DNA of 13,371 nt. It comes from Candidatus Woesearchaeota archaeon (GTDB lineage Archaea > Nanobdellota > Nanobdellia > SCGC-AAA011-G17 > JACPIM01). Location: contig CAZPBI010000003.1 in assembly GCA_964584825.1 (NCBI GenBank), positions 1 through 13,371 on the forward strand, given 5' to 3'. Position 1 is the first letter of the stretch; each line of letters opens with the position of its first letter. The notes beneath the pieces were generated by a model that ran no database searches, was not told the DNA's origin, and was given only the letters and a program-made list of their open reading frames with translations. Shown in pieces: positions 1 to 12,217 of this stretch. The position numbers and the translations under genes are program-made.

Positions 1-207
1 TTTATCAAGAAAATCTTTTGAAATCCATATCCCTTCTTTATCTTGGGCAACAGACTTCATGCTATCATTGCCACATTTGCTCCAATAATTGTTAAAATAA
101 TTAGGGCTTGCTTTAAGCAGCTCTATCATTCTTTTATATGTCTTTGCACATACAAAAGCGTGCATTTGTTTATTCCCAATCATCAGCATCCCATTTGCAT
201 ATTTCAT
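1..207 (-). CDS. hypothetical protein (N-terminal 69 codons; ORF continues past the left edge)
   Basis: ATG 207-205 overlaps the TGA (206-204) of family member A as ATGA, with an SD-like GGCGGAGAG run just upstream. The frame is open for all 69 codons to nt 1 (MKYANGMLMIGNKQMHAFVCAKTYKRMIELLKASPNYFNNYWSKCGND...). It is absent from the track only because its stop lies outside the window. Confidence 0.6.
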   Translation of the reverse strand, partial: MKYANGMLMIGNKQMHAFVCAKTYKRMIELLKASPNYFNNYWSKCGNDSMKSVAQDKEGIWISKDFLDK

Positions 208-539
208 TCTCTCCGCCTCTTTTCCTTCCATTCTTTCAGGAATTGCTTTATATCTACATCATTCCATTCTGGAACATCATTTTGAATAAGGAGTTTTCTG
301 CCATACTTTTTAAGTATCTTTTCAAGTTCCCTGTCGGAGAGGATGTTGAAGCCTGCTCTTTTTAAATCATCTATTTTAATTAATTCTGATTTCAATATTT
401 TTCTTTTATTTTCTTCCAAATGCTTCTGGAATTCATTATGTATTTTTGTTTTTTCTAATTCATAGCCTTCTAATCCATAATCTACAAGAATTAGCCCTAT
501 TTCTTCACAAAGTTTCTCAAAATCTGATTTTTGATTCAT
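204..539 (-). CDS. hypothetical protein, member A of a three-copy family in this window
   Basis: 111 aa track ORF with ATGA overlaps at both ends. It shares the N-terminus MNQKSDFEKLCEE, the central GFNILSD(R/S)E and the C-terminal KQFLK.WKE.RRRE with ORFs 9658-9957 and 11707-11970. Confidence 0.85.
   Translation of the reverse strand: MNQKSDFEKLCEEIGLILVDYGLEGYELEKTKIHNEFQKHLEENKRKILKSELIKIDDLKRAGFNILSDRELEKILKKYGRKLLIQNDVPEWNDVDIKQFLKEWKEKRRRE
331..353 (-). repeat. conserved 23-nt GC-rich block inside family member A
   Basis: The + strand reads ctgtcggagaggatgttgaagcc. It is identical at 11834-11856 and matches 21/23 at 9803-9825. It encodes GFNILSD with uniformly C-ending codons (GGC TTC AAC ATC CTC TCC GAC), unlike the A/T-ending codons used around it. 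Confidence 0.9.
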
Positions 540-739
540 TCTTTTACCTCATGTTCTTCTATTTCAAAGTATGGTTTATGTAAATAATGTTTTTTCGTTA
601 ACTCATTGTCAGAAAGTTTTTCAAGGTCATTAATCTTTCTATCTGCATCTGCCTCATTTGCAAAAACTCCTTCAATTCTATAAACATCATTACACTCATA
701 ACATCCTTTCATTCTACCAGTTATAATATACACCTTCAT
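536..739 (-). CDS. hypothetical protein
   Basis: 67 aa track ORF with ATGA overlaps at both ends (739/736 and 539/536). AGGTGAT SD upstream; one CxxC pair (CYEC). No family recognised. Confidence 0.75.
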   Translation of the reverse strand: MKVYIITGRMKGCYECNDVYRIEGVFANEADADRKINDLEKLSDNELTKKHYLHKPYFEIEEHEVKE

Positions 740-1647: not shown

Positions 1648-2148
1648 CTATTCATAATTCTCTTGTATGTGTTTAATATCCTTCAAATTGAAACTTTTTA
1701 AATCAACATATCTTATTGAATATCCATTTTTCATAGCATAATAATTCAATACCATTAATGAATAAATATCAGCAATTGAAACTAAAACTCCAAACAACAA
1801 TCCCATATATCCTAATACTAATCCTCCATAAACAACCCCAAACAAAATTCCCAACAACAATACAACAATAAATTGCTTTAACTTCATCTGCTGGAGGCTA
1901 AACCCAGCAATTTGAAATCCAAGAAAGTAAAAATTTTTTAATCTTCCTTTATGCCCAAACATTCTAACTCCAACCCAATGCCCAATCTCATGGACAAAAA
2001 TTATTGAAAGAATTAACCCAACATAAAATAGTGTATTTAAATCTGATATTGTAGAAAGAAGAACAATTCCTACAACAAACATTACAATAATGTAAATCAA
2101 TTTTAGAATTCTTTTATTCATATTTTCACTTACCATACCAAAAATCAT
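1648..2148 (-). CDS. small polytopic membrane protein with HExxH motif (M50/site-2-protease-like metallopeptidase candidate)
   Basis: 166 aa track ORF. A start at ATG 2121 (MNKRILKL...), just after the upstream TGA, is at least as likely. It has four to five hydrophobic segments. VHEIGHWVGVRMFGH resembles the HExGHxxxAxxxG zinc site of M50 proteases (RseP-type HEFGHFWVARRCG). Ends in TAG. Confidence 0.75.
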   Translation of the reverse strand: MIFGMVSENMNKRILKLIYIIVMFVVGIVLLSTISDLNTLFYVGLILSIIFVHEIGHWVGVRMFGHKGRLKNFYFLGFQIAGFSLQQMKLKQFIVVLLLGILFGVVYGGLVLGYMGLLFGVLVSIADIYSLMVLNYYAMKNGYSIRYVDLKSFNLKDIKHIQENYE

Positions 2149-3636: not shown

Positions 3637-3830
3637 ATTTTCAGTCCTTTATACTTTTCAGGATGCTCTTTTATAATTTCTTCTAACATTTTATCACATA
3701 TTTTCTTCATCATTTTCATGTGATTTTTATCTTTTTCTAAAATTTTAATTGCCTCAGTGATTTTATCTTGAATTTCTTTTGCTTCTTCTGGATGTTTTCT
3801 TTCATAATCCGAAATTATCTTTTTATTCAT
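3633..3830 (-). CDS. hypothetical charged small protein
   Basis: The track ORF is 3633-3845. I prefer ATG 3830 (MNKKIISDYERKHPEE...) because it forms the ATGA overlap with the upstream stop at 3827-3829. 65 aa. Confidence 0.75.
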   Translation of the reverse strand: MNKKIISDYERKHPEEAKEIQDKITEAIKILEKDKNHMKMMKKICDKMLEEIIKEHPEKYKGLKI

Positions 3831-4201
3831 CTTAATGCTTTCCATAACTCTTTCCCCTTTTTTACTCCCTTTTTTATATGTTCAATCCAATTCTTCTTCT
3901 CAAATTTATCTAAATACTTTCTCGCTGTATTCCAACTAATTTTGCATTCTTTTGCTATCTGTGTTGTTGATTTATATCCAGCATAACTTAACAAACATTC
4001 TAAAATTAATTTTTCTGTTGGGTTTAATCTATACTCCCACTCTTTCAATAATTGTATAGAGAATTTTGTTAATCCTCCTCCAAAACATTCTAAACAAAAT
4101 TCTTTTCCCCACTTATTACAACTTCGTCTGTGCGATAAAACACCTCTATATGTTTTACTATGCCATACAAAATCTTGAATTTCTTCTTCATGCATATTCA
4201 T
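3827..4201 (-). CDS. winged-helix/HTH DNA-binding protein with N-terminal Cys/His-rich region
   Basis: 124 aa track ORF. The N-terminal cluster reads H...H...C-x7-C-x2-C. The C-terminal stretch STTQIAKECKISWNTARKYLDKFEKKNWIE looks like a helix-turn-helix plus wing. Confidence 0.8.
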   Translation of the reverse strand: MNMHEEEIQDFVWHSKTYRGVLSHRRSCNKWGKEFCLECFGGGLTKFSIQLLKEWEYRLNPTEKLILECLLSYAGYKSTTQIAKECKISWNTARKYLDKFEKKNWIEHIKKGVKKGKELWKALR

Positions 4202-8734: not shown

Positions 8735-8952
8735 GGTTTCAGCCCCAAAGTGATAATCAAATACTCCTTTAATTCATCAGGAAACTTTTGTATCCTTTTC
8801 AGTATGTCCGCCTTCCGCACATAATCCCTCTCAACTTCGGAAGCGGGGATTGCGGGGAAGCATTTGTTTTTATAAATCTCATAAGATACACAAAAACTAT
8901 CCGCATCATCAGCATCCTTCACATTGAAGCCCAGAATTTTAGGTTTTTTCAT
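8731..8952 (-). CDS. hypothetical protein
   Basis: The track ORF 8731-8976 starts at a GTG. I prefer ATG 8952 (MKKPKILGFNV...). 73 aa, in a GC-richer patch. Confidence 0.75.
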   Translation of the reverse strand: MKKPKILGFNVKDADDADSFCVSYEIYKNKCFPAIPASEVERDYVRKADILKRIQKFPDELKEYLIITLGLKP

Positions 8953-9218: not shown

Positions 9219-9482
9219 TCATGCTTTCACCTTTCTTAATCGTTCTTTTAGTTTGTTTATTGTATTAAATAACCTGAAATTTGCCTTGATAAAATGAAAA
9301 GACATTGAATCCAAAGCCACAATCTCCTCAATCATTGCCTTTTGCTCCAATGGCATCATGCTTGCGCCCTGCTCACACCTGTGCAGATATATCGGGCGCA
9401 TCCTGCCATTGAATTTCTTGTATTTCTGCTTCTCTATTGCTCCGCAGAATTTGCAGAAATTGGATTTAGGTCTGTCGGCCAT
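9219..9482 (-). CDS. zinc-finger small protein
   Basis: The track ORF 9219-9512 starts at a TTG. ATG 9482 (MADRPKSNFCKFCGAIEKQ...) follows AAGGAGAAGAAA. CxxC...HxC pattern. GC-richer patch. 87 aa. Confidence 0.75.
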   Translation of the reverse strand: MADRPKSNFCKFCGAIEKQKYKKFNGRMRPIYLHRCEQGASMMPLEQKAMIEEIVALDSMSFHFIKANFRLFNTINKLKERLRKVKA

Positions 9483-9661
9483 TTTCTTCTCCTTGTGTGT
9501 TTGCACCAACAATTTTTGCTACAAAAATGGAAAATTTCTTCATCACAAAACATTATTTGCATTTCTTCAATTGCTTTACTACATTCATCACAACAATATA
9601 CTTTATTATTACACTCTGGGCAAATTTTGCTTTTCAAATAATTTCTTCCACCCATTTTCAT
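9434..9661 (-). CDS. TRASH/FCS-like zinc-finger protein
   Basis: The track ORF is 9434-9685. I prefer ATG 9661 (MKMGGRNYLKSK...), which forms an ATGA overlap with family member B. CPEC...CCDECSKAIEEMQIMFCDEEIFHFCSKNCW resembles the C-x2-C...FCS-x2-C layout of TRASH/MYM-FCS domains. Its 3' end overlaps the next gene by 49 nt and ends in TAG. Confidence 0.7.
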   Translation of the reverse strand: MKMGGRNYLKSKICPECNNKVYCCDECSKAIEEMQIMFCDEEIFHFCSKNCWCKHTRRRKWPTDLNPISANSAEQ

Positions 9662-9957
9662 TCTCTCCGCCTCTCTTTTTTCCATCTTTTCATAAATCCT
9701 TCTACAAATTTATCTGATTCTTCAAAAGAAATTCTTTTTTCTCCAAACCTATAAACATTCACAAAACAATGCAGAAGACTACAAAATTCATCTGCCATTT
9801 CCCTGTCGGAGAGGACATTGAAGCCTGCACTTTCAAAATTTTCTTTAACTAATCTATAACTGAATAAATCATGTGGCGGTTGTGGAGCATTGTTCTTTTT
9901 TGCCCATTCTTTTTCTGCTTTTCCCCGCCATTTCTCAAAATCTGATTTTTGGTTCAT
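9658..9957 (-). CDS. hypothetical protein, member B of the three-copy family
   Basis: 99 aa track ORF with the pattern MNQKSDFEK...AGFNVLSDRE...KRWKKERRRE. ATGA overlaps at both ends. It is the most divergent of the three copies. Confidence 0.85.
   Translation of the reverse strand: MNQKSDFEKWRGKAEKEWAKKNNAPQPPHDLFSYRLVKENFESAGFNVLSDREMADEFCSLLHCFVNVYRFGEKRISFEESDKFVEGFMKRWKKERRRE
9803..9825 (-). repeat. conserved GC-rich block inside family member B
   Basis: The + strand reads ctgtcggagaggacattgaagcc, matching 21/23 to 331-353 and 11834-11856. Confidence 0.9.
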
Positions 9958-10106
9958 GCTTTCACCTTTCTTGGGTTTGCATTTGCCTTACATTCTGGAC
10001 AAGGTAGTGTATAATATCCTTCTTTAGCATCTAAATCACCCATTGGTGTGTGTTCTCCAAATTCCCATAATCCAAAACCATTACAGGTATTGCATTTTTT
10101 CTTCAT
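9954..10106 (-). CDS. zinc-ribbon mini-protein (50 aa)
   Basis: Hand translation: MKKKCNTCNGFGLWEFGEHTPMGDLDAKEGYYTLPCPECKANANPRKVKA. CxxCxGxG plus CxxC. The TGA overlaps the ATG of family member B. Confidence 0.65.
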   Translation of the reverse strand: MKKKCNTCNGFGLWEFGEHTPMGDLDAKEGYYTLPCPECKANANPRKVKA

Positions 10107-10427: not shown

Positions 10428-10894
10428 TTCAAAAACTCCTGTGATTGTTTTTCAGTTGTCTGTTTTTCAGTTGTCTTTCCTTTATTAAATAATTCATTCA
10501 TTACAAATAAATTATGCTTTAATGCTGCACTATCCACTTCAATACACCCTATTATATCAACCCATTCATCAAAATTGTCTTTCTTGTTTATGTTTTTAAT
10601 ATACTTTTCTTCCTCATTTATTTCTTTAATTATTAGTTTATTTGCATATTCAATTCCTGCCAAAAGTTCTTTTGTTTTTCTTTTTATTTTAAAACAAATT
10701 GTTTCACCTGTTATTTCATCTATAGAATAGAACTCTCCTAAAAAATGCTTTGATTTATCAATCAATCTATCTTCGCTAGATTTTTTACATTTCTCGCAGA
10801 TTTCAAGTTCTGCTTCATCTTTTCTCATATCCTGCTTCTGATGTGAGTTCTTCCGCCTGACGGGAAGGGCAGTGGAGTGGGGGGTTGGGGTCAT
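10424..10894 (-). CDS. hypothetical protein
   Basis: 156 aa track ORF. ATG 10894 overlaps the upstream TGA. The first 22 codons are unusually GC-rich and Pro-rich, so an internal start at ATG 10828 (MRKDEAELEICEKC...) cannot be excluded. The C-terminus carries the duplicated TTEKQ. Confidence 0.8.
   Translation of the reverse strand: MTPTPHSTALPVRRKNSHQKQDMRKDEAELEICEKCKKSSEDRLIDKSKHFLGEFYSIDEITGETICFKIKRKTKELLAGIEYANKLIIKEINEEEKYIKNINKKDNFDEWVDIIGCIEVDSAALKHNLFVMNELFNKGKTTEKQTTEKQSQEFLK
10446..10475 (-). repeat. perfect 15-bp tandem duplication (2 units)
   Basis: The + strand reads tgtttttcagttgtc twice, head to tail (10446-10460 and 10461-10475). It is in frame and encodes TTEKQ-TTEKQ near the C-terminus of ORF 10424-10894. 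Confidence 0.95.
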
Positions 10895-11286
10895 GATTTC
10901 ACTTTTTTACTAATTTTCAGTATTTCTTGCATTGCAAAAAGTAATTTGTTTGCTCCTATAATAATTTTATTTTCTTCTTCATTTGTCCAAGTAGCTCTTC
11001 TCTTGTATGTATTAAAAGCAAAGTATAAACTCCATTTTTCGCCAAAGTTCTCATCAAATCCTTTATTAAATCGCAAATGTAGCCATTCACCGAAATTTGG
11101 TAATCCAAGATTAGTATATGGAATAGCCAAACCTCCCTGAGTTGAAAAACTCGGAATTACTCCAAACTTTTCTTGTAAATCTAAAATACTTAAATCACTA
11201 ATTTTTTTAGAACAAGATATAACTTCTTCTTTTGACAAAGAAAAAAACGTCTTGTTCATATCCTCAATTGATTCTATTTTTTCCAT
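10891..11286 (-). CDS. hypothetical protein
   Basis: 131 aa track ORF. AAGGAGATGAAAGA precedes ATG 11286. No motif recognised. Confidence 0.85.
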   Translation of the reverse strand: MEKIESIEDMNKTFFSLSKEEVISCSKKISDLSILDLQEKFGVIPSFSTQGGLAIPYTNLGLPNFGEWLHLRFNKGFDENFGEKWSLYFAFNTYKRRATWTNEEENKIIIGANKLLFAMQEILKISKKVKS

Positions 11287-11325: not shown

Positions 11326-11523
11326 TTAACTCCTCAGAATAAGTATAAGGAAACCAACAATTACCATAACAAAGCCAGAAGCAATTTGTATTGGATTAAA
11401 ATATATAATTGAGTAGAAGAGCAATCCACTTCCAATCACAAAGAGAAGTGCGCCAAAAATACTAATGCTTGTTAGTATTCTCTGAACATCCAGCAATTTC
11501 TGCTTGTCAAGTTTGTCGGTCAT
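11326..11523 (-). CDS. small membrane protein (2 TM segments)
   Basis: 65 aa track ORF with hydrophobic segments ISIFGALLFVIGSGLLFYSII and IASGFVMVIVGFLILIL. Its start lies inside the last 17 nt of the upstream gene. Confidence 0.75.
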   Translation of the reverse strand: MTDKLDKQKLLDVQRILTSISIFGALLFVIGSGLLFYSIIYFNPIQIASGFVMVIVGFLILILRS

Positions 11524-11710
11524 TTTTCAGCCTTTTGTTTTCAATTTTAATTGCAGTAATTTTACCAACTCCAAGAAGAATACAAATATTGTCATAAGAA
11601 TACCCCATTTCTCTTAATTCCTTAATGGCTTGCGGCTTTAATTTATCAATTTCTCTTTGTATCTTTGTTTTTTCTTTCTTTAATAATATAATTTTACCAA
11701 ATGCAGTCAT
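11507..11710 (-). CDS. small helix-turn-helix protein
   Basis: 67 aa track ORF. ATG 11710 overlaps the TGA of family member C (ATGA). GYSYDNICILLGVGKITAIKIENK looks like a classical HTH. Confidence 0.8.
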   Translation of the reverse strand: MTAFGKIILLKKEKTKIQREIDKLKPQAIKELREMGYSYDNICILLGVGKITAIKIENKRLKNDRQT

Positions 11711-11970
11711 TCTCTCCGCCTCTCCTTCCAGTCTTTCAGGAATTGCTTAACATCATCCAAATTAATTTCACCTACCCACTTTTTACTTAAAATAAATTTC
11801 ATAAGCAAGTCAATGTCACGATTTTCAAGTTCACTGTCGGAGAGGATGTTGAAGCCTTTTAAATCATCTATTTTAATTAATTCTGATTCATTACCCTCTA
11901 ATGTATAATCTACAAGAAATAGCCTTTTTTCTTCGCAGAGTTTCTCAAAATCTGTTTTTTGCTTATTCAT
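11707..11970 (-). CDS. hypothetical protein, member C of the three-copy family
   Basis: 87 aa track ORF with the pattern MNKQKTDFEKLCEE...SELIKIDDLKGFNILSDSELE...VKQFLKDWKERRRE. ATGA overlaps at both ends. Confidence 0.85.
   Translation of the reverse strand: MNKQKTDFEKLCEEKRLFLVDYTLEGNESELIKIDDLKGFNILSDSELENRDIDLLMKFILSKKWVGEINLDDVKQFLKDWKERRRE
11834..11856 (-). repeat. conserved GC-rich block inside family member C
   Basis: Identical 23-mer to 331-353. It is followed directly by a 32-nt perfect match (11857-11888 = 360-391). Confidence 0.9.
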
Positions 11971-12128
11971 GTTTTCAATCCTTTTCCGATTTGTCTTGCA
12001 GATGCCCTTTTTTTCAAATCTTCAATTGTTCCACTTTCCATTTTCCCACTTTTAAATTCTTTGTATGCTTTCCAAAAATCAACACCATAAGCATCACAAA
12101 GTATTTCCCTTATTGATTTTTGCTTCAT
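11967..12128 (-). CDS. hypothetical mini-protein (53 aa)
   Basis: Hand translation: MKQKSIREILCDAYGVDFWKAYKEFKSGKMESGTIEDLKKRASARQIGKGLKT. ATGA overlaps at both ends. Confidence 0.6.
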   Translation of the reverse strand: MKQKSIREILCDAYGVDFWKAYKEFKSGKMESGTIEDLKKRASARQIGKGLKT

Positions 12129-12217
12129 TCCGCACACCCGCACCCTTCAATTATTTTCTCCTTCCGCTTCTTCCGCAATGGCTTTGCTGTTTCTCCTGAA
12201 ATGGTTTTCTGGTTCAT
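12125..12217 (-). CDS. possible basic 30-aa peptide
   Basis: Hand translation: MNQKTISGETAKPLRKKRKEKIIEGCGCAE. AGGAAGGCATAGAAA precedes ATG 12217, and the TGA overlaps the next ATG. It sits in a GC-richer patch. It is very short, so the call is tentative. Confidence 0.4.
   Translation of the reverse strand: MNQKTISGETAKPLRKKRKEKIIEGCGCAE

Follow-up and report, generated by a model that had tools for sequence, protein, structure and literature searches.

Three short coding blocks frozen at the nucleotide level in a fast-evolving family of small genes

The question raised by this locus is why three small genes that have diverged over most of their length should have remained nearly the same, base for base, in a few short coding stretches. 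The genes, referred to here as copies A, B and C, lie in the window, that is, the whole stretch of 13,371 nt analyzed, which is the first part of the 39,154-nt single-contig NCBI assembly GCA_964531575.1 (CAZHDJ010000001.1). The original prediction had proposed either recombination or gene conversion between the copies, or selection on the nucleotide sequence itself, and both ideas hold. We consider it on balance probable that the family represents a modular gene, in which two fast-evolving half-modules are bounded by three nucleotide-constant blocks and the blocks act as crossover points for half-genes and cargo. The three copies are as follows.

Copy A: 204-539, minus strand; 111 amino acids (aa), apparently chimeric, with an N-half like that of C and a C-half like that of E, an orthologue in another genome (L006).
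Copy B: 9658-9957, minus strand; 99 aa, the most diverged paralogue, retaining only the three blocks and weak N-half similarity to E and to D, a relative in a third genome (L002).
Copy C: 11707-11970, minus strand; 87 aa, putative positional orthologue of D (L002) and E (L006).

All three open reading frames (ORFs) were present with the predicted lengths and strand, and they are called in the public annotation as well. Similarity was detected between A and B (BLASTP E=1e-8), B and C (BLASTP E=7e-7) and A and C (tblastn E=3.6e-19); by sequence, the copies are true paralogues. Assembly duplication of a single locus, which the original prediction had named as a way in which it could fail, does not account for them: the copies are 28-50% identical in protein and their neighbors differ, and they thus differ too much, in sequence and in flanks, to be duplicates made by the assembly. 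The DNA details of the prediction were all borne out. A and C share a perfect 32-nt match (360-391 and 11857-11888) and a perfect 23-nt match (331-353 and 11834-11856), the two being split in A by a 6-nt indel, and A carries a 25-codon insertion relative to C. The 5' ends of A and B (513-539 and 9931-9957) agree at 26 of 27 positions, and the last 17 nt of the gene, AGAGGCGGAGAGAATGA, are identical in A, B and C.

Two relatives, located in related metagenomic elements, extend the family to five genes in three genomes. Gene D (protein P0004, on L002) was found by a profile search of 5.8 billion protein clusters and occurs on three short ENA contigs (L002, L003 and L004) that are identical, so that D offers no polymorphism information. 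Gene E was found on L006 by peptide-pattern scans of JGI metagenomes, and L007 is the same sequence. Since D and E were located through peptide patterns, the search did not select for their codons in advance. Gene order is shared among C, D and E, each with a conserved 74-aa gene and a 30-aa mini-ORF upstream and a gene starting MTDKLDKQK downstream; judged by this synteny, they are positional orthologues, and A and B are extra copies in the window genome.

The five genes share one layout, in which three blocks, at the 5' end, in the centre (30 nt) and at the 3' end, alternate with two variable stretches, the N-half and the C-half. In the window, the blocks were located as listed below.

5' block of A: 513-549, minus strand; the gene's own putative Shine-Dalgarno (SD) sequence AGGTAAAAG, an ATGA overlap with the upstream gene and codons 1-9 (MNQKSDFEK).
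5' block of B: 9931-9967, minus strand; counterpart of the block in A.
5' block of C: 11941-11977, minus strand; counterpart of the block in A.
Central block of A: 327-356, minus strand; GCAGGCTTCAACATCCTCTCCGACAGGGAA, encoding AGFNILSDRE in the rarest codons and identical to E at 30/30 positions.
Central block of B: 9799-9828, minus strand; 27/30 positions identical to A.
Central block of C: 11830-11856, minus strand; lacks the GCA codon and has AGT in place of AGG.
3' block of A: 204-220, minus strand; AGAGGCGGAGAGAATGA, comprising the C-terminal RRRE, a purine-rich putative SD sequence and an ATGA stop/start overlap.
3' block of B: 9658-9674, minus strand; identical in sequence to that of A.
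3' block of C: 11707-11723, minus strand; identical in sequence to that of A.

A codon-aware alignment of the five genes bore out the block-wise conservation and spoke against uniform divergence: nucleotide identity was 0.91 in the 5' block, 0.94 in the central block and 0.89 in the 3' block, compared to 0.50 outside the blocks. The block edges were the same in all pairs except A-C. Within the window, a 15-nt sequence of the 3' block and a 14-nt core of the centre occur only in A, B and C, and dinucleotide-preserving shuffles, which gave 0.45 and 0.28 expected matches, respectively, never reached the observed count.

The conservation extends to silent sites. In the central block, codon pairs encoding the same amino acid used the identical codon in 81 of 84 cases (43 expected from codon usage), compared to 93 of 140 outside the blocks (75 expected). 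Between the blocks in the C-half, the silent sites of A and E are saturated (proportion of synonymous differences, 0.74), whereas the centre and 3' block of the same pair contain 0 synonymous differences in ~10.7 synonymous sites (0.26^10.7, P ~5e-7). The A-C pair has a synonymous divergence (dS) of 0.35 in the N-module and 0 differences in 12.5 synonymous sites over the tract that joins SELIKIDDLK to the centre. For comparison, a well-conserved orthologue used as baseline has only 35/56 codons identical with L006. The family proteins are under purifying selection, with ratios of nonsynonymous to synonymous divergence (dN/dS) of 0.30 in the A-C N-module and 0.13 in the A-E C-half. Taken together with the silent-site islands, these ratios indicate protein-coding genes in which three short stretches are under an extra constraint at the DNA or RNA level. 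The proposal of nucleotide-level selection is thus supported, given that these blocks are also frozen, at the same sharp boundaries, in two other genomes (34% and 40% GC), that the flanking silent sites are saturated and that the centre is written in the rarest codons.

In the centre, the string GGC TTC AAC ATC CTC TCC GAC comprises seven consecutive codons, each of which is the rarest synonymous choice in the window's other 47 genes (GC content at third codon positions, GC3, 0.25), and its joint probability under the codon usage of the window is 2e-9. Gene D retains 29/30 positions of the centre, and the rarest-codon string is kept in genomes of 29%, 34% and 40% GC. By comparison, the codons of the 5' block are the common A/T-rich ones, and its identity is less surprising for that reason. 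In an unrelated gene, at 8830-8867 on the minus strand, the motif CFPAIPASEV forms a GC-rich island of rare C-ending codons (TTC CCC ATC CCC TCC). The C-ending codons are retained in L006, although 3/10 codons of the motif differ silently, and the remainder of the gene is ~75% identical.

A frozen run of rare codons could reflect translational selection at the codon level, if GFNILSD needed C-ending codons for accuracy or as a programmed slow patch and the DNA identity were a by-product. G34 tRNAs pair by Watson-Crick with NNC codons, the run consists entirely of NNC codons, each rarer than its synonyms, and the tRNA-Thr(GGU) of the element would adjust NNC/NNU decoding. In addition, GC3 is higher at conserved than at variable residues in several genes of the element (0.56 vs 0.39; 0.55 vs 0.38), and CFPAIPASEV, as a control, keeps TTC, CCC, ATC and TCC in both genomes. 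However, the conserved I, N and D residues of the 74-aa orthologue use T-ending codons with free synonymous change, and codon selection is normally weak; it would neither freeze GCA, AGG and GAA nor yield sharp 30-nt edges. We therefore regard codon selection as a very unlikely source of the freeze.

Sharp edges are what would be expected if the centre were a DNA or mRNA binding site for a sequence-specific protein or guide RNA, such as an operator, a translational repressor site or the target of a nuclease or recombinase. The centre is a discrete 30-nt element conserved across genomes, its length is typical of a protein footprint and it occurs three times in one genome, but inspection revealed no dyad symmetry, 31 kb of contig showed neither a recombinase nor an integrase, no complementary RNA partner was present in the 22 kb scanned and Rfam gave no match. 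A binding site of this kind appears highly improbable. Inspection likewise led us to reject a C/D-box RNA, a tRNA fragment and a dyad-symmetric recombinase site at the centre, and Rfam returned nothing at any of the blocks. An overlapping ORF was rejected as the cause of the frozen centre because the antisense ORFs at 138-365 and 343-465 are not conserved in B.

In the 3' block of all five genes, GAGG and GGAG lie 10 and 4 nt ahead of an ATG that overlaps the stop codon (ATGA), and in all five members a gene starts at this overlap. The five downstream genes are mutually unrelated. Those coupled to the three copies in the window are given here.

Gene coupled downstream of A: 1-207, minus strand; cut by the contig start, no family match.
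Gene coupled downstream of B: 9434-9661, minus strand; 75-aa Cys-rich zinc-finger-like protein.
Gene coupled downstream of C: 11507-11710, minus strand; 67 aa.

The slot is occupied by a 181-aa N6/N4 DNA methylase in L002, behind D, and by a 43-aa ORF in L006, behind E. The 3' block is presumably frozen because it serves at once as the C-terminus of the family protein and as the SD sequence and start codon of the downstream gene.

We considered whether the centre and the 3' block might be frozen as the two strands of one long-range helix. In the model, the C-rich centre CAUCCUCUCCG would pair with the 3' block CGGAGAGAAUG ~120-140 nt downstream, hiding the downstream SD sequence and AUG, so that the downstream gene would be translated only when ribosomes read through the family gene. 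It would comprise 7 contiguous base pairs, or 10/11 with one mismatch, spanning both the SD sequence and the AUG, and CCUCUCCG and CGGAGAG are segments predicted to be paired. In A, B, C and E, no segment within +-150 nt makes a better duplex with the centre than the 3' block does (-13.4 to -15 kcal/mol), and the helix is part of the minimum free energy structure of A, B and C with a pairing probability of 0.9-1.0. By sequence, the two centre substitutions in B (C to U and A to G) would still pair as G-U wobbles. The helix would jointly account for the rare codons ATC CTC TCC and CGG, and synonymous resampling with genome codon usage gave p = 0.0002-0.001 for the duplex stability.

Under GC-matched synonymous recoding, however, the p value was just 0.04-0.10, and the pairing probability fell to 0.16 in D and 0.01 in E, where forcing the helix costs 3.4-3.9 kcal/mol. 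The CGG to CTG change in D breaks a pair without compensation, and the core is invariant in all five members, leaving no variation for covariation. The helix accounts for ~11/30 frozen nucleotides, about a third, and the 3' block was no outlier among the partners of the centre in a scan of the whole contig. Two genome-wide tests for clamps of this kind were negative: the duplex energies of ribosome-binding sites with their own upstream sequences equal those of mismatched controls, and anti-SD tracts ~125 nt upstream of coupled starts numbered 10 compared to ~6.4 expected. Apparent matches of SD variants were attributed to coincidence. Occlusion of the downstream start by such a helix is rather unlikely in our estimate, and a joint freezing of both blocks by it is to be taken as the leading and most concrete mechanistic candidate, with the same tentative standing, and not as a conclusion. 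In the MS2 coat-replicase (Min Jou) interaction, long-range occlusion of an SD sequence enforces translational coupling. The resemblance is that a stretch inside the upstream ORF could base-pair with the ribosome-binding site of the following gene, >100 nt away, and a stop/start overlap links the genes, the overlap being the ATGA present in all five family genes; the difference is that the helix here is only predicted, in 3/5 genes, and is marginal after GC matching. Related work on long-range SD occlusion and translational coupling is available (PMC9894550, PMC2978339).

The evidence for recombination came from scoring the N-halves and the C-halves separately against shuffles, with the blocks removed. 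The N-half of A matches that of C (24/28 identical, z=11.5) and shows no relation to that of E (z=-0.7); the N-halves of B, D and E group as a second type (z=2.9-5.1). For the C-half, the nearest relative of A is E (z=8.0), followed by C (z=4.2). The halves of A have different nearest relatives, indicating that A is chimeric with a junction at or beside the central block. Consistent with a junction at this place, the 100% identity between A and C falls abruptly to unalignable sequence just past the centre. The A-C pair also has a 55-nt perfect tract that adjoins the module with a dS of 0.35. The incongruence of the N- and C-halves and the 55-nt tract support the proposal that copies have exchanged sequence by recombination or gene conversion. 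Judged from the sequences compared, gene conversion within the window genome cannot explain everything, since the blocks are just as constant from one genome to another.

Exchange is also indicated around the genes. Behind the 3' block, each of the three genomes has a different gene. Upstream of C, a mini-ORF of 30 aa (MNQKTISGETAKPLRKKRKEKIIEGCGCAE; 12125-12217, minus strand) has 74% amino-acid identity with its counterpart in L002 (406-498); its start is of the MNQKT type found in the family, and it ends in the GC-rich GGGTGCGGGTGTGCGGAATGA, with an ATGA overlap with the next start. Between the mini-ORF and C lies an extra 58-aa ORF (11967-12143, minus strand; 53 aa from ATG) that begins MRVCGMKQKS and thus carries the MKQKS start of the family. 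The string MRVCGMKQKS also precedes D in L002, where the family gene directly follows the mini-ORF. Since no extra gene intervenes in L002, the ORF at 11967-12143 looks like an insertion at the 5' block. Downstream of the C cassette, the gene starting MTDKLDKQK has an identical 27-35-nt start, ATGACCGACAAACTTGACAAGCAGAAAT, in the three genomes, written in GC-ending rare codons.

ATGACCGACAAACTTGACAAGCAGAAAT start block: 11489-11523 of the window, minus strand; 1301-1328 of L002; 9621-9655 of L006.

The bodies of the MTDKLDKQK genes are non-homologous: the product is a transmembrane protein in the window, is rich in Cys in L002, and is charged and soluble in L006. Short frozen junction blocks around exchangeable sequence thus seem to be a habit of the lineage.

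A rival reading is concerted evolution only, in which repeated short, possibly GC-biased, conversion or recombination tracts among paralogues and co-infecting relatives would homogenize the blocks and the nucleotides themselves would have no function. Recombination at the centre is demonstrable, the A-C identity tract runs 32 nt past the universal centre and other gene starts, such as ATGACCGACAAACTTGACAAGCAGAAAT, are 97-100% shared by non-homologous genes in three genomes. Conversion biased to GC would moreover give C-ending codons both in the blocks and in the CFPAIPASEV motif, but such a bias is unproven in elements of this type. Concerted evolution would also need independent 17-30-nt tracts at exactly the same places, in genomes 11% apart in GC and with saturated silent sites alongside, and the block edges are identical in all pairs but A-C. 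We consider homogenization without function quite unlikely.

In the modular reading, which we prefer, the 5' block would be the ribosome-binding and initiation region of the family gene itself, and the 3' block would be held constant by coding for the C-terminus and by providing the SD sequence and start codon for whichever gene is coupled downstream. The three blocks, being the sole homology left, would serve as crossover points at which half-genes and downstream cargo could be exchanged among family members in the genome and in co-infecting relatives. Several points weigh against the proposal. It does not by itself account for the freeze of the central block, and the codon signal there may partly be a general property of conserved motifs, given the CFPAIPASEV control. 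We infer the role of the 3' block as a ribosome-binding site from its sequence. The three haplotype combinations are formally possible without recombination if the rates of the two halves differ greatly, and the incongruence rests on segments of 25-35 residues in a sample of only five members from three genomes.

We compared the family to known mosaic systems. In lambdoid phages, conserved linker or boundary sequences lie at gene junctions, and phage recombinases carry out relaxed homologous recombination. The family resembles these mosaics in having short conserved stretches at the ends of genes where otherwise unrelated sequences join, and differs in that one block is inside the gene, silent sites are frozen across differing GC and the codons are the rarest. 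The pilE/pilS system of Neisseria and the vls system of Borrelia work by segmental gene conversion between one expressed locus and silent, promoterless donor copies. There too, paralogues alternate conserved nucleotide blocks with variable segments reassorted by recombination, but all three copies here are complete genes, with ribosome-binding site, ATG and stop codon, in different operon contexts. Antigenic-variation cassettes of the pilS/vls type were rejected, as there are no silent truncated donors and A, B and C are all full ORFs. A diversity-generating retroelement was rejected since no reverse transcriptase domain occurs among the called genes in 31 kb and the copies differ by indels and all base types. 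We also rejected an integron-like cassette array, with no integrase domain found in 31 kb of contig and the blocks lying within ORFs.

The closest analogue for the shuffling is, by comparison, provided by the PeSL cassettes of T4-type phages, in which brief regulatory motifs recur among small genes and bring about the exchange of modules (Arbiol et al. 2010, PMC2839356; Comeau et al. 2014, PMC4122927). In both cases conserved motifs are repeated among small genes, which in the phages are non-essential, and the motifs carry expression signals and supply homology for shuffling (PMC2839356, PMC4122927). The motifs of the family also lie at junctions of insertion or replacement, with unrelated genes behind the 3' block and an extra gene at the 5' block. 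PeSLs, however, are intergenic and consist of a sigma-70 promoter and a stem-loop terminator, whereas the blocks here are coding, carry putative translation signals and include one in mid-protein. Promoter-like sites numbered 67 compared to 67.8 expected and none coincided with the blocks; the single terminator-like site, at 10796-10813, is not at a block. Membership in the PeSL class fails because the blocks are coding and have neither a promoter nor a terminator signal.

A combination of the two mechanisms is conceivable, in which the family gene would be a portable "coupler" ORF. The centre and the 3' end would form a long-range anti-SD/SD clamp gating the plugged-in cargo, and the same blocks would be the exchange handles between genomes. 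We think such a gene unlikely; if real, it would represent a PeSL- or integron-like cassette system inside coding sequence that works at translation.

The family is new but a tiny ORFan, and its behavior amounts to a variant, within coding sequence, of the viral mosaicism with conserved junction motifs that is already known. Its most interesting point is that silent sites are frozen on the rarest codons across genomes, which, with the genomes 11% apart in GC, offers a test bed for RNA structure, codon selection and biased gene conversion. If the blocks are functional, one 30-nt coding stretch would combine a peptide motif, an RNA or DNA signal and a recombination handle, and the family would illustrate how a virus whose genes are very small can preserve its expression signals although gene halves and neighbors are swapped. 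The practical impact is limited, as the family comprises just five genes from three metagenomic genomes.

The original prediction had not recognized the family, and our searches agree: there was no match in Pfam, PHROGs, NCBIfam, PADLOC or PDB sequences, five curated protein resources, and thus no known domain. The best sub-threshold matches were to Phi-29 GP3 (14.6 bits, cut-off 25), phrog_32093 (E=0.005), QatD (14-17 bits, cut-off 230) and a PDB sequence (E=1.4). An exhaustive HMMER search of 1.84 billion representatives gave no further true member and added only P0005, P0006 and P0007. P0005 (57 aa; L011 660-760) was rejected as a truncated member, being gene E broken by a run of N in the scaffold and hence a database artefact, and P0006 and P0007 look like spurious repeat proteins by inspection. 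Peptide-pattern and DNA-pattern scans of IMG/VR found no family member, and a scan of GTDB genomes gave three matches in high-GC bacteria, which were rejected as consistent with ~1 expected by chance. On the basis of these searches, the family is a lineage-restricted ORFan, which resides where small genes cluster in an uncultivated, phage-like element. An AlphaFold2 model built on four sequences was helical but unusable (predicted local distance difference test, pLDDT, 51); the proteins are probably small and helical.

The contig was read over ~31 kb, record positions 31258-39154 (the last 8 kb) lying outside this range. All called genes of the window are on the minus strand. The window has ~30% GC, and the coding strand, with 41.7% A, 20.9% G and 8.8% C, shows an extreme strand asymmetry. 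Most of the window's genes are 45-160 codons long, Cys-rich products are frequent and ~20 gene pairs are chained by ATGA stop/start overlaps. Beyond the window, the same contig encodes a T4 endonuclease-V-like gene, DUF932, HATPase and an SNF2 helicase (phrog_62, E=4e-106). No virion gene was seen in the 31 kb and no similar element was found among deposited phages, and a tailed-phage-like contig holds a distant relative of the HATPase gene. Weak matches to DUF7xxx families of archaeal type and to a zinc ribbon of the TFIIB type hint that the host may be an archaeon.

The tRNA-Thr(GGU) gene of the element lies outside the window at L005 455-525 (record ~21446-21516), inside a 430-nt non-coding gap that is the sole sizeable gap in ~31 kb of one-directional small genes. 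The gene at 536-739 (minus strand), immediately upstream of copy A, belongs to DUF7336 (30.3 bits, cut-off 25). Apart from it, the one gene that could be annotated, at 3827-4201 (minus strand), encodes a winged-helix protein (HTH_24, HTH_36) that resembles the N-terminal domains of phage replication initiators. The gene at 1648-2148 (minus strand) encodes a 166-aa multi-pass membrane protein with an HExxH motif (VHEIGHWVG) and no Pfam or PHROG match, and its product may be a novel membrane metalloprotease. The GC-richest spot of the window (18/24) is at 10829-10898 (minus strand), a C-rich 60-nt stretch, ATGACCCCAACCCCCCACTCCACTGCCCTTCCCGTCAGGCGG, located between a gene end at 10891 and a called start at 10828.

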